Assembly (NCBI GenBank): GCA_035524965.1
Contig: DATLFH010000019.1
Span: forward strand, 5,753 to 69,752
Reading direction: 5' to 3'
Length of the DNA stretch: 64,000 nt
Origin: Gemmatimonadota bacterium
GTDB lineage: Bacteria; Gemmatimonadota; Gemmatimonadetes; JACCXV01; JAHWKZ01
Under the pieces are notes generated by a model. It worked only from the letters and a program-made list of their open reading frames with translations. It did not search any database and was not told where the DNA came from. Positions 28,057 through 58,199 of the stretch are shown in pieces. Within the stretch, counting starts at the first letter, position 1, and every line of letters begins with the position of its first letter. A program made the position numbers and the translations under genes.

Positions 28057-28243
28057 GTCGAATGCACCTCCCATACGATTCGAAATCAAGTTGGAAGATA
28101 CCGCGCGCGAACGCTTCAACGCAAGCTTGGGAGGGTCGGCGGATCGCCTTCCGTGGCGCCCTCGGGCACGGTCCCGTAGCGCACGCCAGGCGCGATGCGA
28201 GGTGCGGCTGCCTCCGATGGGTGTAGACCGTACATTCGGGCCG

Positions 28244-29812
28244 ATGGCGGACTCCAAGCGCATCCTCTGGGTCGACGACGAGATCGGCGGCCTCAAGTCC
28301 CACATCCTGTTCCTCGAGAATCGCGGCTTCGCCGTCACCACGGCCCCTAATGGCGAGGACGCGCTGGCGGTCCTCTCCGAGAACGGGTTCGACTGCGTCC
28401 TGTTGGACGAGCAGATGCCCGGCATGCGCGGCATGACGGTGTTCCAGCGGATCCGCGACACCCATCCCCGCCTCCCCGTCGTGATGGTGACGAAGAGCGA
28501 GGAGGAGGGACTGATGGACCAGGCGATCGGCCGCCGCGTGGACGACTACCTCGTCAAGCCGATCAACCCCAACCAGGTCTTATCGGTCCTCAAGCGCCTC
28601 CTCGAAGGATCGCAGATCCGTCACCAGACGATCGCGCAGGAGTTCAGCCGCCGCTATCTGGACCTCGAGGAGGAGCGGAAAACCCGCGTCACGTGGGACG
28701 ACTGGGTAGCGCTGTACAGGGAGATCCTGGCATGGGAGCTCCGGCTCATCGAGGCGGGCGAGCGGGGGCTCCTGGAGAGCCAGCGGGAGATCCACAAGGC
28801 GGCCAACGCCGACTTCACCCGCTACGTCGTCCGTAACTACCGCAACTGGGTGGCGGCGCGACCGGGCGATCGCCCGACACTCTCGCCCGACGTGATCGGA
28901 GAGCGGGTCCAGCCGCTTCTCGAGGCCGACAGCGGGCCCGTCTTCTTCGTGATCATCGACTGTCTGAGGCTCGACCAGTGGCTCGCCATCCGGGACGCGC
29001 TCGAACCGGACTATACGATCGACGAGTCGTTCGCCGGTTCGATCCTGCCGTCGGCTACGCCGTACTCGCGCAACGCGATCTTCAGCGGCTGGTTCCCGCG
29101 ACAGATCGCCGACAAGCACCCCCATCTGTGGATCGGCGACGCCGACATCGAGGGCTCGCTCAATCCGCACGAAGGGGAGCTTCTGGAGAGGCAGCTTAGA
29201 AGGAAGGGGCTCGGCGAGGTCTGCCCCGTTCAGTACACGAAAGTGTACACCGCCGACGACGGGGCGGCGGCGCTCAAGAAGCTTCCGCAATGCTTCCAGA
29301 GCCGGCTGTCGGCCTTCGTGTTCAATTTCATCGATGTCCTGACCCACGGGCGCTCGGAGTCCGAAATCCTTTTGGAGATCGCGCCCGACCCCGAGGCGTT
29401 CCGCTCGCTCAGCCGGTCGTGGTTCCTCCACTCGCCGCTTTACGAGCTGTTGCGTCAGTCCGCGAGGCACGGCGTGCGCGTCGTCCTCACGACCGATCAC
29501 GGATCGGTGCACTGCTTGAGGCCCGCGACCGTGTACGCGCGGCGTGACGCATCGCAGAATCTGCGCTACAAGTTCGGGACCAACATACGCGCCGAGGATG
29601 CGGAGGCCGCGTTCAGGGTCGTCGACCAGGCCGAGATCGGCCTGCCGGACCTGGGCATCAATGTCGCCGCGCTGATGGCGGTCGAGGACTACTACTTCGT
29701 CTATCCCACCAAGCTGCGCGAGTACCAGAGCCGTTATTACGGCGCCTTCCTGCACGGCGGGATCTCGCTCGAGGAGCTGATCCTGCCGGTCGCGACGCTG
29801 ACCCCGAGGTAG
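28244..29812 (+). CDS. response regulator with receiver domain fused to PglZ (alkaline-phosphatase-like) domain, PorX-like
   Basis: CheY-like N-terminus (ILWVDDE...DCVLLDEQMPGMRG...KP) followed by about 400 aa of PglZ-type sequence. Native GC. Confidence 0.8.
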   Translation: MADSKRILWVDDEIGGLKSHILFLENRGFAVTTAPNGEDALAVLSENGFDCVLLDEQMPGMRGMTVFQRIRDTHPRLPVVMVTKSEEEGLMDQAIGRRVDDYLVKPINPNQVLSVLKRLLEGSQIRHQTIAQEFSRRYLDLEEERKTRVTWDDWVALYREILAWELRLIEAGERGLLESQREIHKAANADFTRYVVRNYRNWVAARPGDRPTLSPDVIGERVQPLLEADSGPVFFVIIDCLRLDQWLAIRDALEPDYTIDESFAGSILPSATPYSRNAIFSGWFPRQIADKHPHLWIGDADIEGSLNPHEGELLERQLRRKGLGEVCPVQYTKVYTADDGAAALKKLPQCFQSRLSAFVFNFIDVLTHGRSESEILLEIAPDPEAFRSLSRSWFLHSPLYELLRQSARHGVRVVLTTDHGSVHCLRPATVYARRDASQNLRYKFGTNIRAEDAEAAFRVVDQAEIGLPDLGINVAALMAVEDYYFVYPTKLREYQSRYYGAFLHGGISLEELILPVATLTPR

Positions 29813-29834
29813 GGTTTCCTTTGCCTCCCAGGAG

Positions 29835-29863
29835 TTGACAAGCGACTTCTAAGCTGCTATACT
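29835..29863 (+). promoter_or_regulatory. near-consensus sigma70 promoter (TTGACA - 17 nt - TATACT) heading the low-GC cassette
   Basis: TTGACA at 29835-29840, a 17-nt spacer, then TATACT at 29858-29863. GGAGG at 29904-29908 sits 5 nt before the GTG at 29914. Confidence 0.55.
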
Positions 29864-29913
29864 ATTCTTAATAGCGTAGTAGCTTGGGAAGGGTTCCTTT
29901 CGCGGAGGTTGCG

Positions 29914-30375
29914 GTGAGAATAGTTTGCCTTGAAGGAAGCAGCCTAAATCAGTTGAGCAGGCTCGGCGTCAGCTTCCAAGATCTGACGCCGCATGGGGCT
30001 GGTAGTTCCATCTATCACTTGGTCGTAATGACTGAGGAGCAGGCCGCTGCACTCAGGGAACTCGGGCTCGGAGGGGAGGACATCACGCCCACAGTTCTTC
30101 AGCGAGCCGAACCAGCTTCAAATGGAGGCTACGTTCATTGTCGCGGCGGGAGAATCCCAGATGGCCTTCGGCTCCGCAAGAAGTACAAAGGTCGAGTTAT
30201 CGAGGCGGAAACGAGGGGCGGAAAATTTTGGGTTAACGGACGCAGTTTTTCCAATCCGTCACGCCCTGCGTGCGAAATAACCGGTACCTCGGTCAATGGT
30301 TGGGTTTGGTGGAATTACTTCGATGAATCGAGTGGAGACTGGCGCTCTCTCAACGATCTTCCCGATAACGAGTGA
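29914..30375 (+). CDS. small protein with DUF4357-like C-terminal domain (first gene of low-GC cassette)
   Basis: Started at the GTG behind a GGAGG RBS; the track's TTG at 29884 is an alternative. The C-terminal half reads KFWVNGRSFSNPSRPACEITGTSVNGWVWW, which resembles the DUF4357 signature. GC is about 50%. Confidence 0.6.
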   Translation: MRIVCLEGSSLNQLSRLGVSFQDLTPHGAGSSIYHLVVMTEEQAAALRELGLGGEDITPTVLQRAEPASNGGYVHCRGGRIPDGLRLRKKYKGRVIEAETRGGKFWVNGRSFSNPSRPACEITGTSVNGWVWWNYFDESSGDWRSLNDLPDNE

Positions 30376-30457
30376 GCTTGAGTCACGAGCCTTGCACCAA
30401 TGGCAGCGAAAATGAGTTTCGGGAAGAGAACCGTCAGTCTACTGACAGGATCCTGAC

Positions 30458-30781
30458 ATGATGAGGGAAAGAGTAACGATTGATCAGTATTGTTCCTCAG
30501 CAGGAACCCGCGAACGCGGGCGGCGGGTCTATCCGGAGATCCTGAAAGCGGCAGAAGGTGATAGAGATCTAGAGATCTCTTTCGAGAAAATAGATTTCGT
30601 GTCTCCATCCTTTCTGGATGAGACCGTCGTTCGCTTGGTCGAAGAAGATCCCTCAATCGCTAAGCGCATAACCGTCATCGGACTGCAGCCTTTTGCGGCG
30701 CGAATGCTGAAAACAGCTCTGGGGAAGCTGGGAATTTCCACGGAAATCGTCAAAGACACGACCGAGCGAAGGGCAAGCTAG
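30458..30781 (+). CDS. STAS-like DUF4325 family protein (anti-sigma-antagonist fold)
   Basis: 107 aa. ISFEKIDFVSPSFLDE matches the DUF4325 core. Low GC. Confidence 0.65.
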   Translation: MMRERVTIDQYCSSAGTRERGRRVYPEILKAAEGDRDLEISFEKIDFVSPSFLDETVVRLVEEDPSIAKRITVIGLQPFAARMLKTALGKLGISTEIVKDTTERRAS

Positions 30782-31653
30782 ACGCGCGGTCTGGGATCCC
30801 AGACGATTTCAACGAGAGTTCCAGGAAGAGGGGAACAGCTTTCCCGGGCGGATATACCCCTATCACCGGCATACACGTGAGCGGCACCGCTCCTAATTCC
30901 GAGATAGCCTCCATGTTCTCGAACCGCCTCAACAATCATGGGAAGGCCGAGTCCTCCCCTGCCAATCCTGCTTGAGACATGCGGGTCTAAAGCACGAAGC
31001 ACCATTTCCGCGTCGGATAGCGTGCCGAGTCTCCCCTCGAGGGCTGCGGGGATGCCGATGCCGCCATCTCCGACTGCGATCTGCACTCTCTGATTATATC
31101 GTTGGACAGTGACTATCGCCTCACGGCTCTGGCTATGGGACTCGATGTTGCTGAGCAGCTCACCCAGGCCGAGACGAAGGTATTCTCCGCTGATTTCGAG
31201 ATCTTTTCCTCGCATGACGATCGTCTCAAAAATTCTTTGCGTGAGATCCTCGACCTGATCGTCGTTCTTCAGCTCGAAGATCGACACCTCGAGCAACTTG
31301 TCCGCCAGGTCTCTCTCGCTCAGCTGCAATTGTTCGATCGGGGGGCGAAACCCGACAGGGAGATCTGAAACCGCAGCCGGAAAGTGCATTCTCACTAGAT
31401 AGTTCCTGACATCCAAGGAATCGGGCAGCTCGACCAAAACCTTCGACGCTCCACGATCAAGGAGATCTCGGATGAGCCAGTACAGATAGATCAAGCCGAA
31501 GGGCTCGATGAACTCGACGTGGTTCATGCGAAGGACAACCTCAGGTTCTACGGCACCTGTCGGGGAGAGCCGGAAAGTCGTGCCTTGCTTGAGTCGAATC
31601 TCGTTGAGAGAAAGCACGAGGCGATCTCCCTCTCGCTGGAGTTCCAAAGGCAT
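30778..31653 (-). CDS. GHKL (histidine-kinase/RsbW-like) ATPase with N-terminal STAS-like region
   Basis: N box ELLSNIESHS, G1 box VGDGGIGI and G2 box GRGGLGLP. Convergent with the STAS-like gene, with the stop codons overlapping by 4 nt. Low GC. Confidence 0.7.
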   Translation of the reverse strand: MPLELQREGDRLVLSLNEIRLKQGTTFRLSPTGAVEPEVVLRMNHVEFIEPFGLIYLYWLIRDLLDRGASKVLVELPDSLDVRNYLVRMHFPAAVSDLPVGFRPPIEQLQLSERDLADKLLEVSIFELKNDDQVEDLTQRIFETIVMRGKDLEISGEYLRLGLGELLSNIESHSQSREAIVTVQRYNQRVQIAVGDGGIGIPAALEGRLGTLSDAEMVLRALDPHVSSRIGRGGLGLPMIVEAVREHGGYLGIRSGAAHVYAGDRGISARESCSPLPGTLVEIVWDPRPRV

Positions 31654-31669
31654 CGACCTCTCCGCTGGT

Positions 31670-32323
31670 TCAGCCTCCTGAAGCGAATCCCGCGAGAGCC
31701 TCCTTGCCCCGATCCACGATGGGCTCCCCGTGGGTCAGGAGGAGGTGGCGGAAGTCGCGCTCGAGGAGGGCGTGGCAGGCTTTAGCGACGCGCGCCTTCA
31801 AGGCCGGCGGGTCGTCCCCATACCAGCCGTCCGGCGCGTAACTGAGGGGCCCCTCGCCGTCCCGCAGCAGGATATCCGCGAAGGTCAGGGCCCCGCCGGC
31901 GACGGGCACGTAGAGGACGGTTTCGTCCAGCTCCTGGCCCGGAACGGCGAGCGCTTCGATCCCGCCGGTCAGCGCCGCGCCGTGGTTGAACGGCTCAGCG
32001 GCCGGCACACGCTCCCGCACGTGGTCGAGCCCGGCGCGATGGCAGAGTACCCGGCAGCCGAACGCTTCGGCGAAGGCGGAGCTCTCCCGTGAGTGGTAGC
32101 GATTGGTCACCAGGATCGTCTCAGGCGCCGGCCGGCCCTCGAACCACTCGAACCGCGCGCCCGGGATCATGGGGTCGATCAGCACGCGGGATCCCTCCAC
32201 GTAGTAGGAGCTGACGACGATCCTTTGCTCCGGGTGGAATGCGGTCCAGTGATGAAGTCCCGGCGCGATCTCCCGGACCGGTCCCGGGGGCGGAGTTTCG
32301 GCGCCCTTCGCGGCACCGGTCAT
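31670..32323 (-). CDS. MBL-fold-like hydrolase family protein (paralog 1)
   Basis: Paralogous to the next gene (VTNRYHSRES / LTNRHHYRHS; LLTHGEPIV / LLAHGEPIV). Confidence 0.55.
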   Translation of the reverse strand: MTGAAKGAETPPPGPVREIAPGLHHWTAFHPEQRIVVSSYYVEGSRVLIDPMIPGARFEWFEGRPAPETILVTNRYHSRESSAFAEAFGCRVLCHRAGLDHVRERVPAAEPFNHGAALTGGIEALAVPGQELDETVLYVPVAGGALTFADILLRDGEGPLSYAPDGWYGDDPPALKARVAKACHALLERDFRHLLLTHGEPIVDRGKEALAGFASGG

Positions 32324-32946
32324 GATCCCGCCGTCTCCTTTCGCTTGCCCACGAACCGGGCGAGCGCCTCCCGACCCCCGCCTACGATCGGCTCGCCGTG
32401 CGCCAGGAGGACATGACGGAAGTCGTGCTCCTCGACAAGGCGGCCGAGCGACTCCCGGAGACCCGCCTTGACCCCCTCCGGATCCTCACCCATGTATTCG
32501 TCGGACACGAACCTCAGATCTCCCTCCCGGATGACCGCATCCCCGATCGCCAGGATCCCAGCCTCGCGCACCGTGTGGAACGCCGTCTCCTCCGGACAGA
32601 GCACTCCGATCTCGATCGCCAGGAAGCCGTTCGGGAAGTCATCCCCGGCGGCAAACGGCTCGACCTCCTCGCCGGATGTGAACTCGTGCATCCCCGCCCG
32701 ATGGCAGCGCACGGTCGCGCCGTAGGCGCCGGCCAGCTCGCCGCTGTGCCTGTAGTGATGGCGGTTCGTCAGCAGGATGTCGTGCGGCTCGCCGTGGCGC
32801 CGGAACCACTCGACGCCCTCCTCCGGCACCCGCGGGTCGATCAGCACACCGCCGTCGGCATCAGTCAGGTAGTACGAGTGGATATCGATTCCCCACTTCT
32901 CGTGCTGGGTCGTCCAGTGGAAAACGCCGGGCAGGATCTCATTCAT
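32320..32946 (-). CDS. MBL-fold-like hydrolase family protein (paralog 2)
   Basis: Tandem duplicate with a 4-nt overlap. Confidence 0.55.
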   Translation of the reverse strand: MNEILPGVFHWTTQHEKWGIDIHSYYLTDADGGVLIDPRVPEEGVEWFRRHGEPHDILLTNRHHYRHSGELAGAYGATVRCHRAGMHEFTSGEEVEPFAAGDDFPNGFLAIEIGVLCPEETAFHTVREAGILAIGDAVIREGDLRFVSDEYMGEDPEGVKAGLRESLGRLVEEHDFRHVLLAHGEPIVGGGREALARFVGKRKETAGS

Positions 32947-33043
32947 GATACCCTCGGTCCTTCGGGTGATGGCGTGCTGCTCGCCCCGCGGGAGACGACT
33001 CCCGCGCGGGTAGGGACGGCGCCAGTTTAATATCTTCTCTCCG

Positions 33044-34870
33044 ATGGCTACCTACCTCCGGATGCTGGGATATCTGCGGCCGCACGCACCGCTCCTCGGG
33101 CTGTCGTTCGGGTTGATGGTGGCGTTCGCCCTGGTCGATGGCTTCTCGATCGTCGTCCTGATCCCGTTTCTGCAGGTCCTCTTCGGCGGCCCCTCGCCCG
33201 CGGCCGCGATCCCGGCTCCCGATCACTGGCTGGGGCGGATCGAGAACTTCCTCAAGTACGATCTCTTCACGTTCCTGGCCGAGCCGTCGCGGCTGGGGAC
33301 GCTGACTAACGTGTGCCTCATCATCCTGGTGATCTACTTCGTGAAGGCGGTGCTGGGCTACTTCCAGCAGTTCCTGCCGCAGATCGTGCTCGAGCGGGCG
33401 CTCAGGGACCTCCGGAACGAGTTCTTCGCCCACCTCCACGGCCTCTCGTTCCGATACTACCAGCGGACCCGCGCCGGACACCTGCTGTCGATCCTGACGA
33501 ACGATGTCCAGCTCCTCAAGAACGCGATCTCGACCGGCGTCTTCCAGGTGACCCGCAACCTCCTGGAGGTCTCGGTCACGCTCCTCATCCTGCTGGCGAT
33601 CTCGTGGCGGCTGACGCTCCTCGCCATCGCGATCCTGCCCCCGATCGCCTGGATCGCGGTCCTGATCGCGCGGAAGCTGCGGCGGGTCAACCGCGAGCTG
33701 CTCCAGAAGTTCGGCGACGTCACAAGCGCGCTCCAGGAGACGATCGCCGGGATTCGCATCATCAAGGCGTTCGGCGCCGAGCGCTACGAGCGGGCGCGGT
33801 TCGCCGGCGACAACGCGGGCTACCTCAGGAACACCGTGCGTTCGAGAAAGTACGCGCTGCTGGGCACGCCGCTCTCGGAGTTCCTGCTAGCGACGGCGGT
33901 CGTCGTGATCCTGTACATCGGCGGCCGCATGATCCTGACCGGCGGGGATCTCACTCCCGAGACGTTCTTCGTGTTCCTCGTCGCGGCGCTCAAGCTGTCG
34001 AGCCCCCTCAAGTACCTCTCGAAGCTGAACGAGGACGTGCAGCCGGCGCTGGCCGGCTGCGAGCGGATCTTCGCGGTCCTCGACACCGAGCCGGAAGTCG
34101 TGGAAGCGTTGCACCCGGTGCCGATCTCGGGCTTCGAGGATCGGGTCCGCTATGAGGACGTCTCCTTCGCCTACGAGGAGGGCGGGCCCGTCCTCCACGA
34201 TATCTCGTTCACGATCGGGAAGGGGGAGGTAGTCGCGCTCGTCGGCCCATCGGGGGGCGGCAAGTCCACGCTCGTCGACCTCCTGCCGCGATTCTACGAC
34301 CCGTCCTCGGGCCGAATCCTGTTCGATGGCCACGATCTCCGCGATGTCCGCCTCGCCGACCTGAGGTCGCAGATGGGGATCGTCACGCAGGAGGTGATCC
34401 TGTTCCATGACACGGTGGCCGCCAACGTCGCCTACGGGACCGTGCCCGACCAGGAGCGGCTCGAGGCGGCCGCCCGCGCCGCCAACGCGCTCGACTTCAT
34501 CCGGGCGCTCCCTGACGGATTCGAAACGCCCCTGGGCGAGCGTGGGGTGCGTCTCTCCGGCGGCCAGCGGCAGCGGATCGCGATCGCGCGCGCGATCTAC
34601 CGGAACCCGCCGATCCTCATCTTCGACGAGGCGACCTCGGCGCTGGACACCGAGAGCGAAATGCTGGTCCAGGAGGCGATCTCCCGACTCATGGAGAACC
34701 GTACGGCGATCGTCATCGCGCATCGTCTTTCGACGGTGCTCCGCGCCGACCGGATCGTCGTGATCGAGCGGGGCCGAGTGGTGGAACAGGGGACCCACGC
34801 CGAGCTCCTCGCGCGCGCGGGTCGCTACAGCCGCCTCTACGAGCTGCAGTTCGCCGAGCTGCCGGCGTGA
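33044..34870 (+). CDS. msbA: ABC transporter ATP-binding/permease, MsbA-like lipid exporter
   Basis: Six-TM domain, then Walker A GPSGGGKST, signature LSGGQRQR and Walker B ILIFDEATSALD. Confidence 0.8.
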   Translation: MATYLRMLGYLRPHAPLLGLSFGLMVAFALVDGFSIVVLIPFLQVLFGGPSPAAAIPAPDHWLGRIENFLKYDLFTFLAEPSRLGTLTNVCLIILVIYFVKAVLGYFQQFLPQIVLERALRDLRNEFFAHLHGLSFRYYQRTRAGHLLSILTNDVQLLKNAISTGVFQVTRNLLEVSVTLLILLAISWRLTLLAIAILPPIAWIAVLIARKLRRVNRELLQKFGDVTSALQETIAGIRIIKAFGAERYERARFAGDNAGYLRNTVRSRKYALLGTPLSEFLLATAVVVILYIGGRMILTGGDLTPETFFVFLVAALKLSSPLKYLSKLNEDVQPALAGCERIFAVLDTEPEVVEALHPVPISGFEDRVRYEDVSFAYEEGGPVLHDISFTIGKGEVVALVGPSGGGKSTLVDLLPRFYDPSSGRILFDGHDLRDVRLADLRSQMGIVTQEVILFHDTVAANVAYGTVPDQERLEAAARAANALDFIRALPDGFETPLGERGVRLSGGQRQRIAIARAIYRNPPILIFDEATSALDTESEMLVQEAISRLMENRTAIVIAHRLSTVLRADRIVVIERGRVVEQGTHAELLARAGRYSRLYELQFAELPA

Positions 34871-35952: not shown

Positions 35953-37079
35953 TGAGCGACCCGCTCGCCGTCTTCCATTGCGACGCGCGCACGATCTGGG
36001 CCGGAGGGCAGAACCAGCTCCTGCTCCTCGCCCTCGGACTTCGGCAGCGCGGCCACCGGCAGTGGATCGTGACTCCGCCCGGGAGCCCGCTCGCCGGACG
36101 GGCAGGGGATGAAGGGCTGGACCTCCTGCCTCAGCCCTATCGGGGCGAGGCCGATCCGCGCGCAACGTGGAGGCTCGCGAGACTGATCCGCAGGCATCGC
36201 CCCGACCTGGTCCACGCGCACGACCCTCACAGCCTGGCGCCGGCGGCCCTCGCCGCTCGGCTGGTCGGGCTTCCGCCGCGCGGCATTCGGCCGCGCGTGA
36301 TCGGCCACCGCCGGGTCGACTTCCACATCCGGCCGCACCGCGTCTCGCGCTGGAAGTATGCGCGTGGACCCGACCGCCTGATCGCCGTCAGCGAGCGGGT
36401 CCGGGAAGTCCTCCTCGAGAACGGCGTTCCATCCGGGCGCATCACGGTGATCCACGATGGGATCGACCTCGAGGCGCAGCCCCCGCCGTCGGGGCCTTCG
36501 CTCAGGGCCCGGATCGGCGCCGGCCCGGAGATTCCGCTCGTCCTGACGATCGCCTCGGCCGTCGGGTACAAGGACCATCCGACCCTGATCGAGGCGGCCG
36601 CGTCGCTGCGTGGACGCGAGCCGATGACGCGATGGGTCGTCCTCGGCGAGGGGGGCCTCCTGGAAGAGATGCGCGCGCGAGTCCGATCGCGCGGCCTGGA
36701 GGGGCGTGTCCACTATCTGGGCTTCCATCCGGGTGCGCGAGGCTTCCTGCCCGAGGCCGACGTCTTCGTCCTGTCGAGTCGAACCGAAGGGCTGGGGACG
36801 AGCGTGCTGGACGCGATGGCGGCCGGCGTGCCGGTCGCCGCCACGGCGGGCGGCGGTATCCCCGAGATGGTCGAGCACGAGGTCACCGGACTTCTCGCGC
36901 CGGTGGGGGACGGCGACGCGCTCGCGGGCCACGTCGATCGGCTGCTCGACGAGCGCGGTCTCGCCCGCCGGCTCGCGGACCGCGCGCGGGAGCGCGTCCG
37001 CGACTTCGACATCGCGCGTACGGTCGAGCGGACCGAGCGGCTCTACCGCGAGGTCCTCGCCGGCCATCCGTATGATTAG
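35952..37079 (+). CDS. glycosyltransferase family 4
   Basis: The C-terminal half matches the GT4 sequence pattern. Confidence 0.8.
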   Translation: MSDPLAVFHCDARTIWAGGQNQLLLLALGLRQRGHRQWIVTPPGSPLAGRAGDEGLDLLPQPYRGEADPRATWRLARLIRRHRPDLVHAHDPHSLAPAALAARLVGLPPRGIRPRVIGHRRVDFHIRPHRVSRWKYARGPDRLIAVSERVREVLLENGVPSGRITVIHDGIDLEAQPPPSGPSLRARIGAGPEIPLVLTIASAVGYKDHPTLIEAAASLRGREPMTRWVVLGEGGLLEEMRARVRSRGLEGRVHYLGFHPGARGFLPEADVFVLSSRTEGLGTSVLDAMAAGVPVAATAGGGIPEMVEHEVTGLLAPVGDGDALAGHVDRLLDERGLARRLADRARERVRDFDIARTVERTERLYREVLAGHPYD

Positions 37080-37147
37080 GCTGCCCATCATGGGCCGCTT
37101 TCCAGCGAACGACTTTCGTTCCAACGATCCGGAGGAGAGGAGAGGAC

Positions 37148-37534
37148 ATGGCTGACGTCACCCTGAAGAAGATCGACGAGCTCGAGGGCTATGAGGGCCC
37201 GGGTGGGCCGTCGGGTGCGTTCCTGTACGCCGGCAAGAATCTCGGCGTGACGGCGTGGGGCATGAACGTTCTGAGGCTGCCGCCCAACTGGTCGGAGTAC
37301 CCTGAGCACGATCACACGGCAGACGGCCAGGAGGAGGTTTATGTCGTGCTGGAGGGTAGCGCGAAGCTCGAGGCGGGTGGCGAAAGCTGGCCACTCGAGC
37401 CGGGCATGCTGGTCCGCGTCGGTCCTGGCGAGAAACGGGCGATCGCGCCCGGCGAAGATGGCGTCACGCTGCTGGCTCTGGGGGGCACGCCCGGCAGGGC
37501 CTACGAGCCGCCGTCCTGGATGCAAGTTTCATGA
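37148..37534 (+). CDS. cupin domain protein
   Basis: Single cupin barrel (HDHTADGQEEVYVVLEG). Confidence 0.7.
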   Translation: MADVTLKKIDELEGYEGPGGPSGAFLYAGKNLGVTAWGMNVLRLPPNWSEYPEHDHTADGQEEVYVVLEGSAKLEAGGESWPLEPGMLVRVGPGEKRAIAPGEDGVTLLALGGTPGRAYEPPSWMQVS

Positions 37535-38046
37535 GACGGGTTCGCTATTCGGTAGCAATGAGCCTCGACGGCTTCATCGCAGGCCCTCAGGGCGAAAGCG
37601 ACTGGATTGTCATGGATCCGGACATCGATTTCCGTGCCCTGTTCAAAGAGTTCGACACCGTCCTATTGGGTCGGAAGACTTACGAAGCAATGCACCTGCA
37701 AGGCGGTGGCGGCGGGATGTCCGGCATGCAGGCCTACGTCTTTTCGCGCACCCTTCGCCAGAACGACTGTTCCGATGTGAAGGTTTCGGACAAGCTGGAA
37801 GAAACGTTGGCTGTCCTCAAGGCAAGCTCGGGGAAAGACATCTGGTTGTTTGGCGGCGGCTCCCTTTTCCGCAGCCTGCTGGATCTCAGGATGGTGGACG
37901 CGGTTGAGGTGGCGATCGTACCGGTGCTTCTCGGGGGTGGGATATCTCTCCTACCTCATCCAGCCAAGCTGGCCAGGCTTCGGCTGACGAAGCACCGGGT
38001 CTACGAGAAGACGGGCACGATTGCGCTCGAGTACGCAATGACGTGA
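37531..38046 (+). CDS. dihydrofolate-reductase-like (RibD C-terminal domain) protein
   Basis: YSVAMSLDGFIAGP...LLGRKTYE motif. GC is noticeably lower than the flanks. Confidence 0.75.
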   Translation: MRRVRYSVAMSLDGFIAGPQGESDWIVMDPDIDFRALFKEFDTVLLGRKTYEAMHLQGGGGGMSGMQAYVFSRTLRQNDCSDVKVSDKLEETLAVLKASSGKDIWLFGGGSLFRSLLDLRMVDAVEVAIVPVLLGGGISLLPHPAKLARLRLTKHRVYEKTGTIALEYAMT

Positions 38047-38729
38047 GAGGCTGCTTCGGCGAGCGTGGACCTGCAATGACAGACGATCACAGGTGTCGTG
38101 ACCAGGCCGCGTGGGAGCGTATCTTCGCGGCGATCCCCGCGGACTGGTATAGCGCGCCGCCCTCGGATGCGATGAACCAGTGCAGGGCTTACTTCGCGGC
38201 CAATTCCTGCCAGCGACTCCTCGATCTCGGGTGCGGCTTCGGCCGCTGGGCACAGTATCTGACGGGCCACGGCACGAAGGAGGTGGTCGGGATCGACTAC
38301 GCCGAGCACGGGATTCGAGCTGCGGTCGCCTGGGCCCGCAGGGAAGGTTTCAACGGAAAGTTCGTTGTCGCCTCCGTTGCCGAGCTCCCCTTCCATGGTC
38401 AGCGGTTTGACGGTGTGCTCGCGGCGGTGCTCCTCGACAACTTGACCCGAGCGGATTGCGCGCGTGTGGTGCGGGAGGTCAACGCTGTCGCGCGACGCGG
38501 CGCGCGTGGATTCTTCGTGTTCAATCCGCGTCTCACGCCAGCCGAACTTGCGGCCGCGTCGGACGACAACCCGACGAAGGATTGCACGCACGTCGTATAC
38601 GAGGATGAGGAGTTGACCGGCTGCTTGCCGGGTTGGACCGTAACGCGAGTCGGGCCGACCGCGGAACGATTTCGAGTGGTCGAAGCAACCTATCAACCCA
38701 CGAGCAACCTTCACGGCATGCCATCCTGA
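38043..38729 (+). CDS. class I SAM-dependent methyltransferase
   Basis: Motif I LLDLGCGFGRW. The start could be the internal MTDDH at 38076. Confidence 0.75.
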   Translation: MRGCFGERGPAMTDDHRCRDQAAWERIFAAIPADWYSAPPSDAMNQCRAYFAANSCQRLLDLGCGFGRWAQYLTGHGTKEVVGIDYAEHGIRAAVAWARREGFNGKFVVASVAELPFHGQRFDGVLAAVLLDNLTRADCARVVREVNAVARRGARGFFVFNPRLTPAELAAASDDNPTKDCTHVVYEDEELTGCLPGWTVTRVGPTAERFRVVEATYQPTSNLHGMPS

Positions 38730-38743
38730 GATTAGGGGAGCTG

Positions 38744-39310
38744 ATGACGACACATGTTCGTGTCTTATGCCGCGCGCTGGTTCCATGCTGTGCGCTGATT
38801 CTGGCAGCGGGATGGGCGACGATCGCGGAGGCCCAGGAGGGCTCCCCGCAGTACCCGCTGCCCACCGACGTCGAGAGCCTCGACGGGATCATCCGGGCTT
38901 ATTACGAGGTCGTGTCCGGGCCGGCGGGTAAGTCTGCGGACCGCGCTCGCGACGAGTCCCTGCACGCTCCGGGAGCTCGCATCGGAATCAGCGGCGTGGA
39001 CCCGGACGGCAAGCCCACCCTCCAGATGATGACCCTCGGCGAATACCATGATCGCTTCGGCGGGCCACGCGCGAATCCGTTCTACGAGTGGGAGATTCAC
39101 CGGGTGACGCAGCGATTTGGCAATATCGCGCACGTGTGGAGCACGTACGCTATCAGCGATACGCCGGGCGGCGCGTCTACGGGGAGAGGAATCAACAGCA
39201 TTCAGCTCTACTTCGATGGCGCGCGATGGTGGATTACCGGCTGGGTGTTCGATTCCGAGCGGGCGGGGAATCCCATTCCCCGGCAGTTTCTGCCGACCGG
39301 CCCCGGTTAG
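38744..39310 (+). CDS. secreted NTF2-like/SnoaL-like fold protein (paralog of 49219..49782)
   Basis: AGGGGAG RBS before the ATG, then a signal peptide. Shares DVESLDGII.AYY.VVSGPAG, QRFGNIA and RGINSI.L..DG.RWW with the other copy. Confidence 0.65.
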   Translation: MTTHVRVLCRALVPCCALILAAGWATIAEAQEGSPQYPLPTDVESLDGIIRAYYEVVSGPAGKSADRARDESLHAPGARIGISGVDPDGKPTLQMMTLGEYHDRFGGPRANPFYEWEIHRVTQRFGNIAHVWSTYAISDTPGGASTGRGINSIQLYFDGARWWITGWVFDSERAGNPIPRQFLPTGPG

Positions 39311-39349
39311 GCGCCGGTCGCCGAGGAAGAGCCCCGCGCTGGAAACCGG

Positions 39350-39568
39350 CTAGCCGGAGGTGGGGGTCATCTCCGCGTTGTCGCAATGGAAGCCCGCTGT
39401 GGAGTGGGTCCCGTCGCAGAAGGGCTTGGTACCGGAGTCCCCGCAGCGGCAGAGCCACGTCTCCCCCTGCGCCTCGAGCTTCGTCCCATCGCTCAAAACG
39501 ATCTTGAAGGTCCCGCGAACGTAATAGGGGCCGTTCTCCTGGGGCGTGATCACGACGTCGTCCGTCAT
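39350..39568 (-). CDS. CDGSH-type iron-sulfur domain protein
   Basis: CRCGDSGTKPFCDGTH motif. Confidence 0.8.
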   Translation of the reverse strand: MTDDVVITPQENGPYYVRGTFKIVLSDGTKLEAQGETWLCRCGDSGTKPFCDGTHSTAGFHCDNAEMTPTSG

Positions 39569-41674: not shown

Positions 41675-42859
41675 CTACTGCGGTACGATCTTGAAGACGC
41701 CGCCCTCGGCGGTCAGGATGTACAGCTCTCCATCGGAGTCTTCCCCGAACGAAGTCACGCTGGATTGGGGCGGCTCGATCTCGGACCACCGGCGCGGGTC
41801 GGTCGCCTCTCCGCCGGACAACCGGAAGCTGCGCACGAATCCGCTGCAGAAATCGGAGTAGAAGTAAAGTCCTTCAAGCGAGGGAAGCGCGTCACCCCGG
41901 TAGACGTGGCCGCCGGTCACCGAGCAGCCCTGGTCGTGCGAATATTCGAGGACCGGCAGCGTCAGCCCCTCCGTATCGCAATCTTCCCGCGGCTCGAAGC
42001 AGCGCGACCCTTCCATCACGTTCCACCCGTAGTTGAGTCCTCCGCCGGCTCCGTCGACGGCGTTGATCTCCTCGATCGCGTTCTGTCCGACGTCGGCGAT
42101 GTAGAGGTCGCCGATCTCGCGATCGAAGGCGAAGCGCCACGGGTTGCGGAGACCGTAGGCCCAGATCTCGCCGCGGGCGCCGGCCTGGTTGACGAACGGG
42201 TTATCCGGCGGGACGGCGTACGGCTCCACGCCGTCGATGTCGAGCCGCAGGATCGAGCCCAGGAGCGTCCCCAGGTTCTGGCCGTGACCTTGCGGATCGC
42301 CGCCCGAGCCGCCGTCCCCCAGACCGACGTACAACATCCCGTCCGGACCGAAGACGATGAGCCCCCCATTGTGGTTGCTGAACGGCTGGGCGACGGTCAG
42401 GATCGTTCGGACCGGCGCGGCGTCCGCGCGATTCGGATCGCCGGACACCCGGTACTCGACCACCCGCGTGTCGCCGGCCGTGTCCGTGTAATCGACGAAG
42501 AACCGGCCGCTGGAGGCGAAGTCCGGATGCAATGCGATCGAGAGGAGCCCCTGCTCGCTGCCCCTCGAGACGAGCGCGGTCACATCGAGGAAGGGATCCG
42601 GCAACACCTGGCCGTTCTCGACGACGAGGACCCGGCCCCCCTTCTCGACTACGAAGAGGCGCGGATCTCCCTCCGGTGCGGTCAGGTGGACCGGGAAGTC
42701 GAGCCCGGTCGCGATCGGGCGGAGAGTAGGCCGGGAGTTCCCGCCGTTCGGATCGGGGTCCGGATCCGGCCCCGACTGATTGACCTGGCCATTGGCACAC
42801 GCAATCCCGAAGGCCAGCACCGGGACGAACCCGAGGCGTAGTTGGTGGAAGGCGCGCAT
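41675..42859 (-). CDS. PQQ-dependent sugar dehydrogenase (soluble glucose/sorbosone dehydrogenase family), lipoprotein
   Basis: Lipobox, then beta-propeller motifs (HNGG, GDGG, YGLRNPWRF). Confidence 0.75.
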   Translation of the reverse strand: MRAFHQLRLGFVPVLAFGIACANGQVNQSGPDPDPDPNGGNSRPTLRPIATGLDFPVHLTAPEGDPRLFVVEKGGRVLVVENGQVLPDPFLDVTALVSRGSEQGLLSIALHPDFASSGRFFVDYTDTAGDTRVVEYRVSGDPNRADAAPVRTILTVAQPFSNHNGGLIVFGPDGMLYVGLGDGGSGGDPQGHGQNLGTLLGSILRLDIDGVEPYAVPPDNPFVNQAGARGEIWAYGLRNPWRFAFDREIGDLYIADVGQNAIEEINAVDGAGGGLNYGWNVMEGSRCFEPREDCDTEGLTLPVLEYSHDQGCSVTGGHVYRGDALPSLEGLYFYSDFCSGFVRSFRLSGGEATDPRRWSEIEPPQSSVTSFGEDSDGELYILTAEGGVFKIVPQ

Positions 42860-57020: not shown

Positions 57021-57104
57021 CGAATTTACCGCGCAAGCCCCCCGCCGTCGCGGTTGCGGGCGAGTCCTCGAACCGGGATCGCCGGCCCCATTATAAGCCG
57101 CCGG

Positions 57105-58199
57105 CTAGCGGCTTTCAATCAGGACGAATACTTCCGCGCCGGATCGTTCCACGCTGAGATTGATCTCGTCGTCGCGCTCCCACGCCTCCGTCATCCGGCG
57201 TTGGGCGTCTACGACATCGGAGCCCACCGGTCGCCCCTCGATCGTCCGGAGGAGGTCCCCCTGGAGCACGCCGGCCCGGGCCGCCGGGGAGCCCGCGTCG
57301 ACATAGGCGACGAAGATCCTCGTGTCGTAGGTGGCTCCGAGGTCGAGGCCGTAATCGGTGCCGCTGGCGCGTTCGCGCGCTACCGGCGCGGGAGCCTCGG
57401 CGCCCGCCCGCTCCGCGTATTCCTCCCTGACGGCGAAGACCGCGCTCCCCGGCGGGTTTCGATCGAGCCAATCCGCCAGGGTGGCGATTCGCGACAGGCG
57501 GTGGTTCGGCTCGAGTGCCTCCACAACGAACGCGTGATTCGGGTTGTAGGCCCGCCACAGCGGATCGTCAAACGCTTCCGCGAGGCGCCGGCGGCCCCAG
57601 AGGTCCTCCAGCGCGCGGTAGGTCACCCAGTTGACGAGCGCCTCTGCGTCGAAATTCCCGGGCGCCATGAACGGATGATCGTAGGCCGGATCCCGGCGGT
57701 CCGGGGCGACGAAGGGCGGGGCGTCGAGCAGGTAGTGGGTGAGCTGATGGGCGACGATCAGGAGCCGTAGATCCAGGTCATCGGGGATGGGGACCTCGCC
57801 GCCGGTGCCGCGCACCGACCCGAGCGCGAGAACGAGCGGGTACTCGATCGACACGGTCGGCCAGTCGCGAACGAGATACACCTCGATGTCGCGGTAGGGC
57901 CAGTCGAGGCCGGTGAAGTCCGCCACCCGCTGGAGGAAGAGCGACCCCTGACGGTCCCACCAGTCGACCAGCGGCTCGGCCTCCTCGCGCACCCAAGCGA
58001 TGTCCTCTTCTACAGATTCGCCGCCGGCCCGGCCACCACCGGGGTACGCGATCTCCAGGAGCTCTTCTCCGCCGGCGCGAAAATGGACGACCGGGACGGC
58101 CGCGTCGGACTGGGCGCGGAGGGCCGCGGGAAACGCGAGGTGCCCGAGACCCGCGACCGCCGCAACGACCGCCGCCAAAAGGACCTTTAGAGCGCGCAT
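57105..58199 (-). CDS. secreted protein with C-terminal PDZ domain
   Basis: Signal peptide, and a PDZ-like region FVAYVDAGSPAARAGVLQGDLLRTIEGRPV. Confidence 0.6.
   Translation of the reverse strand: MRALKVLLAAVVAAVAGLGHLAFPAALRAQSDAAVPVVHFRAGGEELLEIAYPGGGRAGGESVEEDIAWVREEAEPLVDWWDRQGSLFLQRVADFTGLDWPYRDIEVYLVRDWPTVSIEYPLVLALGSVRGTGGEVPIPDDLDLRLLIVAHQLTHYLLDAPPFVAPDRRDPAYDHPFMAPGNFDAEALVNWVTYRALEDLWGRRRLAEAFDDPLWRAYNPNHAFVVEALEPNHRLSRIATLADWLDRNPPGSAVFAVREEYAERAGAEAPAPVARERASGTDYGLDLGATYDTRIFVAYVDAGSPAARAGVLQGDLLRTIEGRPVGSDVVDAQRRMTEAWERDDEINLSVERSGAEVFVLIESR

Follow-up and report, generated by a model that had tools for sequence, protein, structure and literature searches.

CapK/CapS and VapK/VapS, from bacterial immune operons, are two switches in which a kinase activated by single-stranded DNA (ssDNA) acts on a STAS substrate, so that DNA damage leads to immune-gene expression or to the freeing of a toxin (Chambers et al., EMBO J 2026, PMC13373217). 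CapS, which joins a STAS domain to a winged helix-turn-helix (wHTH), is phosphorylated at Ser54, a site mapped experimentally, whereupon the repressor dimer breaks and operons encoding CBASS, Bub, Thoeris and other systems are de-repressed (PMC13373217). The STAS-GHKL kinase VapK is proposed to phosphorylate Ser48 of VapS, a STAS domain with a short tail, and so to free the PIN toxin VapC; the vapKSC operon protects E. coli from phage Bas42, and VapK F54, a residue predicted to stack on ssDNA, is required for this (PMC13373217). In that study capS comes directly after each of the 443 capK genes, and the three genes of the vapKSC operon are described in the order of its name (PMC13373217). Here we describe a related pair of genes in a low-GC island of a Gemmatimonadota metagenome-assembled genome (MAG), within a stretch of 64,000 nucleotides of contig DATLFH010000019.1 (hereafter the window). 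The pair encodes a STAS-GHKL protein, K, and a small STAS protein, S, and the island holds one further open reading frame (ORF), orf1. We consider it probable that the core of the island is a two-gene phospho-switch of the CapK/VapK-CapS/VapS kind, carried on acquired DNA.

A kinase and STAS partner related to CapK/CapS and VapK/VapS

The resemblance to the described switches is clearest in K. Compared by hhalign with the CapK, CapS, VapK and VapS sequences of Appendix Table S2 of PMC13373217, the K family profile matches VapK at 98.8% probability (E = 9.4e-17), along 240 columns that span both domains, and CapK at 99.1% (E = 1.3e-18). The pair is thus homologous to characterized systems, and the label of uncharacterised families that the original prediction gave to the island genes does not hold for it. 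The AlphaFold2 (AF2) model of K is confident (pLDDT 87.8, pTM 0.89), with the STAS beta-strands beginning at residue 3. Pfam calls a STAS domain in phage homologues of K and finds no helix-turn-helix (HTH) domain in K itself. K therefore has the architecture of VapK, STAS plus GHKL without an HTH, and it shares the STAS-GHKL core of CapK, from which it differs in the missing N-terminal HTH, the alignment starting at CapK residue 118. The NCBI record of the source MAG gives K as a 249-aa protein from an internal Met43; the 291-aa form, which includes the first STAS strands, is supported by all homologues and by another gene caller on an identical contig from a second assembly.

The residues expected to matter for catalysis are retained. 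The ATP-binding motifs are intact: 103 K sequences, with identities down to 22%, all share the N-box Asn169, which aligns with the catalytic Asn of CapK (N218), together with His173 and D196-G198-G200 of the G1 box, and E165, G234 and G236 are at least 90% conserved across the same set, a pattern such as would be expected of an active ATP-using enzyme. F48, at least 90% conserved in the close clade, aligns with VapK F54, with residue numbers verified against the deposited models, and it appears to be the same kind of residue, an aromatic at the ssDNA-stacking position, as CapK W68 and VapK F54. In the STAS domain of K the canonical Ser position is held by Pro-Phe (E50-P51-F52-G53). A sequence search of K against the PDB returns marginal histidine-kinase matches only, and NCBIfam gives no meaningful match for K or S. 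Close homologues of K are scarce, only 16 among 5.8 billion clustered proteins. An exhaustive profile search finds 1,438 K cluster representatives at E <= 1e-10, and among the 150 representatives listed nearly all are 255-325 aa long and match most of the profile.

S is likewise closest to the STAS substrates of these switches. Searched against the PDB, the S family profile matches Escherichia VapS (9z7o_A) best, with E = 4.4e-6 against 0.19 for RsbS, and hhalign places the profile against VapS at 91.8%. Among 17 diverse S proteins the only invariant residues are F42, S51 and F52, and the S motif S51-F52-x-D-E corresponds to S54-F55-P-R-E of CapS. Because S51 is both invariant and placed like the mapped serine of CapS, it is the predicted phospho-acceptor, with S49 as a second candidate. 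As in VapKSC, the kinase gene adjoins that of its partner, a STAS protein of small size that carries a conserved Ser and ends in a short tail. The island proteins nevertheless differ from VapK and VapS in having only about 15-20% identity to them, the S tail is unlike the VapC-blocking helix of VapS, and no VapC or other PIN gene occurs among the island ORFs or beside about 20 related pairs that we inspected. The differences from CapS are equally plain: S has no wHTH DNA-binding domain, and therefore would not be a repressor alone, and no immune operon lies downstream of it.

The tail of S varies within the family. S proteins of one subclade (L004, L006, L101, L102 and L103; L numbers denote the genomes and contigs compared) end in a conserved tail, ARG(I/L)xxx(I/L)PxYEPA, and the tail of the source S differs. 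By analogy with the VapC-blocking tail of VapS, the conserved tail may be a partner-binding peptide.

Judged by these alignments, the island appears to hold a switch of the CapK/VapK-CapS/VapS kind in a format that lacks both repressor domain and toxin; the kind of switch is itself already described. Our literature searches on DUF4325, and on STAS or partner switching in anti-phage defence, found nothing relevant.

Linkage of the pair in phages, plasmids and islands

The original prediction treated the island as a three-gene cassette, and in this respect it has to be revised: only the GHKL and DUF4325 genes are linked, in about 20 independent contexts, and orf1 is linked to them nowhere else. 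This picture of the neighbourhoods rests on about 20 contexts inspected by hand, to which a viral scan contributed 1 locus and a metagenome scan 4 loci. Among close K homologues (40-57% identity), every one with sequence past the 3' end of K has a convergent DUF4325 gene (L001-L006, L089, L094 and L101-L103; ten distinct loci), at a gap of -10 to +30 nt. The 4-nt overlap of stop codons found in the island recurs in L001-L003 and L094, and in L007 by called gene coordinates. The distant homologues, at about 25% identity, are arranged co-directionally, K and then S (L091, L092, L093, L096, L097, L104, L106 and L109).

Many of these contexts are mobile. In Streptococcus phage Javan132 the pair (Javan132_0004/0003) lies between lysin and paratox genes, and in Marinitoga phage MPV1 (MPV1_51/50) between repressor/methylase and integrase genes. 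Further co-directional pairs occur on an IMG/VR phage contig (L093) and in a type IV secretion region (L096), and plasmid copies are found in Pseudomonas, Alicyclobacillus and Hymenobacter. Other contexts include conjugative plasmids, a type ISP restriction enzyme and HNH genes. A published prophage table also has the pair in Francisella phage KIRK, as proteins of 293 aa and 112 aa (DUF4325) encoded between the integrase and the CI repressor. The phage pairs Javan132_0004/0003 and MPV1_51/50 resemble the pair of the island in consisting of two genes without a toxin. The phage families phrog_3364 and phrog_9989 correspond to K and S, respectively, source K matching phrog_3364 at 6e-20. The phage and plasmid copies differ from the pair of the island in being co-directional and only about 25% identical.

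The pair on the Alicyclobacillus plasmid pAACI02 (L106, 79-1748) lies directly downstream of a gene for a 92-aa 'sigma factor-like helix-turn-helix DNA-binding protein'. Of the contexts inspected, no other gives a hint of a sigma-type output.

The clearest view of what is transferred comes from L103, where the pair alone (755-1984) forms a sharp 1.2-kb island with a GC content of 0.49-0.55 against 0.70, with native genes on both sides and without mobility genes. Since the pair alone makes up this island, it is the unit of two genes that moves. The GC content of the pair lies below that of its surroundings in most hosts, and the closest homologues (L101, L102) sit in contigs of about 55% GC, like the island described here. 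By gene content across these loci, the functional core would be a mobile two-gene K-S module, and orf1 an unrelated extra.

The two genes may also occur as one. Phage K homologues and the S protein of MPV1 match two successive stretches at the N-terminal end (about 5-260 and 314-393) of the PADLOC DrmA profile PDLC02567, which has 1750 positions, and phrog_5816 (441 positions) is matched by K and S in the same tandem order, through the L090-L092 homologues. These profile coordinates suggest that natural fusions of K and S exist, some of them forming the N-terminus of DISARM helicases. The source K and S, unlike the phage proteins, do not match PDLC02567, and there are no DISARM genes here.

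The island, its promoter and the slot it occupies

The composition of the island (Table 1) sets it apart from the rest of the window. Its GC content of 0.545 compares with a mean of 0.690 (sd 0.020, minimum 0.630) over all other non-overlapping 1857-nt windows of the 64-kb window (z = -7.1), and in a two-boundary likelihood scan the best fit has its left edge at 29810 and its right edge at 31688, the latter closely rivalled by 31653. The PorX-like gene has its stop codon (29810-29812) at the left edge, and the right edge lies no more than about 20 nt from that of MBL gene 1 (31670-31672). The 300-nt GC profile shows abrupt steps at these places, one each, from 0.65 to 0.54 on the left and from 0.59 to 0.68-0.72 on the right. 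GC content at third codon positions (GC3) is 0.56, 0.55 and 0.62 in the three island ORFs and 0.85-0.92 in six neighbouring genes. None of the three genes is encoded by any of 19 Gemmatimonadota relatives (L008-L026), whether at native GC or otherwise, that carry a PorX-like orthologue at 78-85% identity, in a scan of one genome per species. Because the composition is discontinuous and the genes are absent from related genomes, the island is confirmed as horizontally acquired DNA. The sharp bounds, foreign codon usage and horizontal origin put forward in the original prediction are all borne out by these comparisons.

Table 1. Positions of the island, its genes and other features, and of the flanking genes, within the window.
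Feature	Position	Strand	Details
Low-GC island	29813..31669	none	Between the stops of the PorX-like gene and MBL-like gene 1; GC 0.545
K	30778..31653	-	N-terminal STAS (about residues 1-105) and C-terminal SpoIIAB/RsbW-type GHKL kinase; 291 aa, no N-terminal HTH
S	30458..30781	+	STAS-only protein, Pfam DUF4325; 107 aa; related to VapS and CapS
CTAG	30778..30781	none	Overlapping stop codons of the convergent K and S genes, from the sequence
Sigma-70-type promoter	29835..29863	+	TTGACA-17 nt-TATACT, TG before the -10 box; 11/12 consensus positions; faces orf1 and the S gene
Hairpin with T-rich tail	30431..30448	-	On the K-sense strand, just beyond the antisense of the S gene; weak evidence
orf1	29884..30375	+	Start at TTG 29884 (163 aa) or at GTG 29914 (153 aa), the latter preceded by GGAGG 29904-29908
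PorX-like response regulator, left flank	28238..29812	+	Native; REC and PglZ domains; GC3 0.90
MBL-fold gene 1, right flank	31670..32323	-	Native; GC3 0.85; same direction as the K gene, 16 nt upstream

Marks of the mobility event are lacking. No integrase, transposase, nearby tRNA or significant flanking repeat is found at the island, as the original prediction had already noted for integrases, transposases and long flanking repeats; searches for target duplications and flanking repeats return short matches at chance level only, and the GCCTCC shared close to the two edges is too short a match to be meaningful. The sole tRNA-like call in the window, made by ARAGORN at 42681-42767 with its identity undetermined and a four-base anticodon (cgcg), is 11 kb from the island. 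The second-lowest GC stretch of the window, at about 37000-39400, is a much weaker dip to 0.63-0.65, and the minimum 1857-nt window starts at 37514.

The island carries a strong consensus promoter of its own, as the original prediction had proposed, but this can serve only orf1 and the S gene. K is out of its reach because the K gene is on the opposite strand, 16 nt behind a native MBL gene. Near-perfect sites of this type are rare: shuffled sequence would give 0.01 sites with at most one mismatch from the sigma-70 consensus in 64 kb, and the window has 2, the other being TTGAAA-17-TATAAT at 57090-57118 on the minus strand. A ribosome-binding site, GGAGAGG, precedes the K gene. Terminator-like hairpins are not enriched in the island, with 2 found and 2.5±1.6 in shuffles; the hairpin listed in Table 1 may act as the terminator of the K transcript. 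Five relatives of the pair (L004, L006, L101, L102 and L103) have a conserved extended -10-like element (TGTGTATAAT; TATACT in L004) 20-35 nt upstream of the S start. In the source island the equivalent promoter is upstream of orf1, as though orf1 had slotted between S and its promoter.

The domain assignments in the original prediction are essentially right. Those of S and K pass Pfam cut-offs (DUF4325, described as 'STAS-like domain', at 34.9 bits with a cut-off of 23; HATPase_c at 32.9 bits with a cut-off of 26.4), and the matches of orf1 to DUF4357, RAMA and DUF2924 are all sub-threshold. With tblastn, orf1 matches small plasmid-encoded proteins (130-150 aa; annotation DUF4357 or DUF2924) at 8e-8 to 1e-2, in Azonexus (8e-8), Variovorax (9e-7), Rhizobium and Streptomyces, and an alignment of four sequences has 16 invariant columns in the C-terminal domain. 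On this similarity orf1 is a real member of a RAMA/DUF4357/DUF2924-like family. One gene caller does not call it on the identical independent contig, a word-indexed search returned no homologue and not even orf1 itself, PADLOC gives only weak C-terminal matches to PDC-S14, and the single-sequence AF2 model is unusable (pLDDT 47). RAMA domains are predicted to read N6-methyladenine in settings of restriction-modification (PMC4738411), and DUF4357 is found in GmrSD, GIY-YIG and T5orf172 proteins (PMC4619093). We considered orf1 as a part of the module and rejected it, as it never stands beside the K-S pair in the other loci inspected. A tblastn match to orf1 beside the pair in L103 proved to be the wrong frame of a native reductase gene.

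The place that the island occupies is a variable region of the lineage, with a low-GC filling in the source genome only. Between the PorX-like gene and msbA (29813-33043 in the window) the slot is hypervariable across the 19 relatives, ranging from 21 nt to about 7 kb and holding zero to two MBL-fold genes. Six relatives have msbA 21 nt after the PorX-like gene. The others have one or two MBL genes together with 0.4-6.4 kb of other genes at native GC (0.68-0.73). L008 and L012, for example, have a PEP-mutase/isocitrate-lyase-like gene there, and L009 encodes a 440-aa membrane protein. The empty site suggested by the original prediction as a check, with the PorX-like gene adjoining the MBL gene, is not seen: the relatives either have native-GC genes there or lack MBL genes; the absence of the cassette stands and an empty slot exists in the six, but no relative shows that adjacency.

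A second assembly (Logan, SRR8556377; L088) is 100% identical to the source over 29792-33604. Its contig starts 21 nt left of the island edge, and this start may reflect an assembly-graph branch from island-free strains.

To the right of the island, the MBL-fold genes (31670-32946; PF14597-like) are tandem paralogues whose coding sequences overlap by 4 nt and which share a 79-nt stretch at 76% identity. Relatives have one, two or none of them, and orthologues of MBL gene 1 at 70-73% identity occur in L008, L010, L012 and L015. These genes are native and older than the island. 'MBL operons' downstream of capKS are mentioned in PMC13373217, and we claim no tie to them.

A possible mechanism and its alternatives

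If K and S work as their homologues do, K would bind S and transfer a phosphate from ATP to Ser51, where the second STAS helix begins, and phosphorylated S would release whatever it holds. By the same comparison, K would probably be activated by ssDNA lying in the groove between its STAS and kinase domains, with F48 at the position of VapK F54, and in that case the module would signal DNA damage or phage replication. Since there is no wHTH and no PIN toxin, the target of S would lie elsewhere: S may gate a partner encoded at another locus, or orf1, or K may have further substrates. On the side of expression, S and orf1 would be transcribed together from the strong island promoter, and K mRNA would most likely arise by read-through from the native MBL operon. 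As the genes are convergent with overlapping stops, each transcript would run antisense into the other gene. A role in defence or stress sensing, as originally predicted, is plausible by homology and context.

Several observations weigh against the phospho-switch. Kinase activity, the Ser51 site and activation by ssDNA are all carried over from homologues at about 20% identity, and profile alignments set VapS S48 opposite P50 of S, with the register uncertain by one or two residues. Both established outputs, the wHTH of CapS and the toxin VapC, are missing from the island, leaving the mechanism incomplete, and no promoter for K was found within the island. The convergent arrangement departs from capKS and vapKSC, in which S follows K on one strand. 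No defence genes lie in the window flanks of the island, a PADLOC v2.0 scan gives no significant match for K or S (the best for K is PglZ, E 0.056), and in several homologues, among them L004 and L097, the pair sits in ordinary chromosomal gene contexts.

The fold of the two proteins would also agree with a classical partner switch, in which K is an anti-sigma factor holding a sigma factor of the host or of a mobile element and S is the anti-anti-sigma factor, as in SpoIIAB/SpoIIAA and RsbW/RsbV, and one plasmid pair, that of L106, does have a sigma-like gene upstream. However, the island and most other contexts have neither a sigma factor nor a PP2C phosphatase, the pair travels on mobile elements and not within a developmental or stress operon, and K has a fused STAS of its own, like CapK and VapK, with which it aligns over both domains. 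S, for its part, is closest to VapS and not to SpoIIAA or RsbV. We regard this explanation as very unlikely. The pair could instead be a self-contained toxin-antitoxin or abortive-infection unit, in which K, as the toxic effector, phosphorylates essential host proteins, S is a pseudo-substrate antitoxin and no third part is needed. The movement of the two-gene unit alone, seen in L103, fits such a unit, as does the presence of the pair in prophage accessory positions. Such positions are the usual home of exclusion and addiction genes. DUF4325 proteins are also coupled to VapC-like PIN toxins (PMC5499597) and VapS is a proven antitoxin (PMC13373217), so S-type proteins act as neutralisers. In both characterized systems, though, the kinase is the sensor and not the effector, and convergent genes are unusual for toxin-antitoxin pairs; we think this alternative unlikely, though less so than the sigma-factor switch.

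It is also conceivable that the pair normally serves mobile elements, for instance by linking DNA damage to the induction of a prophage or to a defence operon nearby, and is a functionless orphan here. The window has no output, mobility or defence-neighbour genes, the island offers K no promoter, and in phages the pair stands beside repressor and integrase genes, all of which would suit a stranded remnant. Against this, the three ORFs are intact, the catalytic and family-invariant residues are all kept, the promoter is near-perfect, and the toxin-less two-gene form recurs in many unrelated hosts, a recurrence that speaks for a functional unit. Decay of this kind seems to us decidedly improbable. 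Scarcely credible is the remaining view, that the genes are native and owe their low GC to functional or expression constraints: it draws on edges without integrase, tRNA or direct repeats and on a PorX-like-to-msbA slot that varies in the lineage even for native-GC genes, but the gap in GC3 (0.55-0.62 against 0.85-0.92) goes beyond amino-acid content, the genes are missing from 19 of 19 relatives, and their closest homologues reside in contigs of about 55% GC.

Within the preferred reading, that of a CapK/VapK-CapS/VapS-kind phospho-switch, a more far-reaching proposal can be made, which we offer tentatively and hold to be possible though on the unlikely side. The stand-alone K-S pair would be a complete signalling or abortive-infection device, in which K, activated by ssDNA, phosphorylates S, and S then frees or activates a target that its neighbourhood does not encode, such as a host protein, or in this island orf1, the RAMA/DUF4357-like DNA-binding protein transcribed along with S. 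In the Gemmatimonadota-type clade, convergence would provide mutual antisense control, making the expression of K and S antagonistic, and the tandem match to DrmA would represent a sensor in cis that gates a defence helicase.

The family to which this locus belongs has about 1,400 representatives, in phages, plasmids and small islands. Names and testable residues (N169 and F48 of K, S51 of S) can now be attached to pairs otherwise annotated as 'ATP-binding protein' and 'STAS-like domain-containing protein'. The locus and its relatives appear to represent a third, apparently widespread format of the switch, without repressor domain or toxin, carried by temperate phages, plasmids and very small islands that lack integrases, and with one clade in which the convergent arrangement is fixed. 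The target of S in this minimal format would tell how far the modularity of the sensor reaches, including its possible fusion to DrmA, and whether phages use it for decisions of their own.

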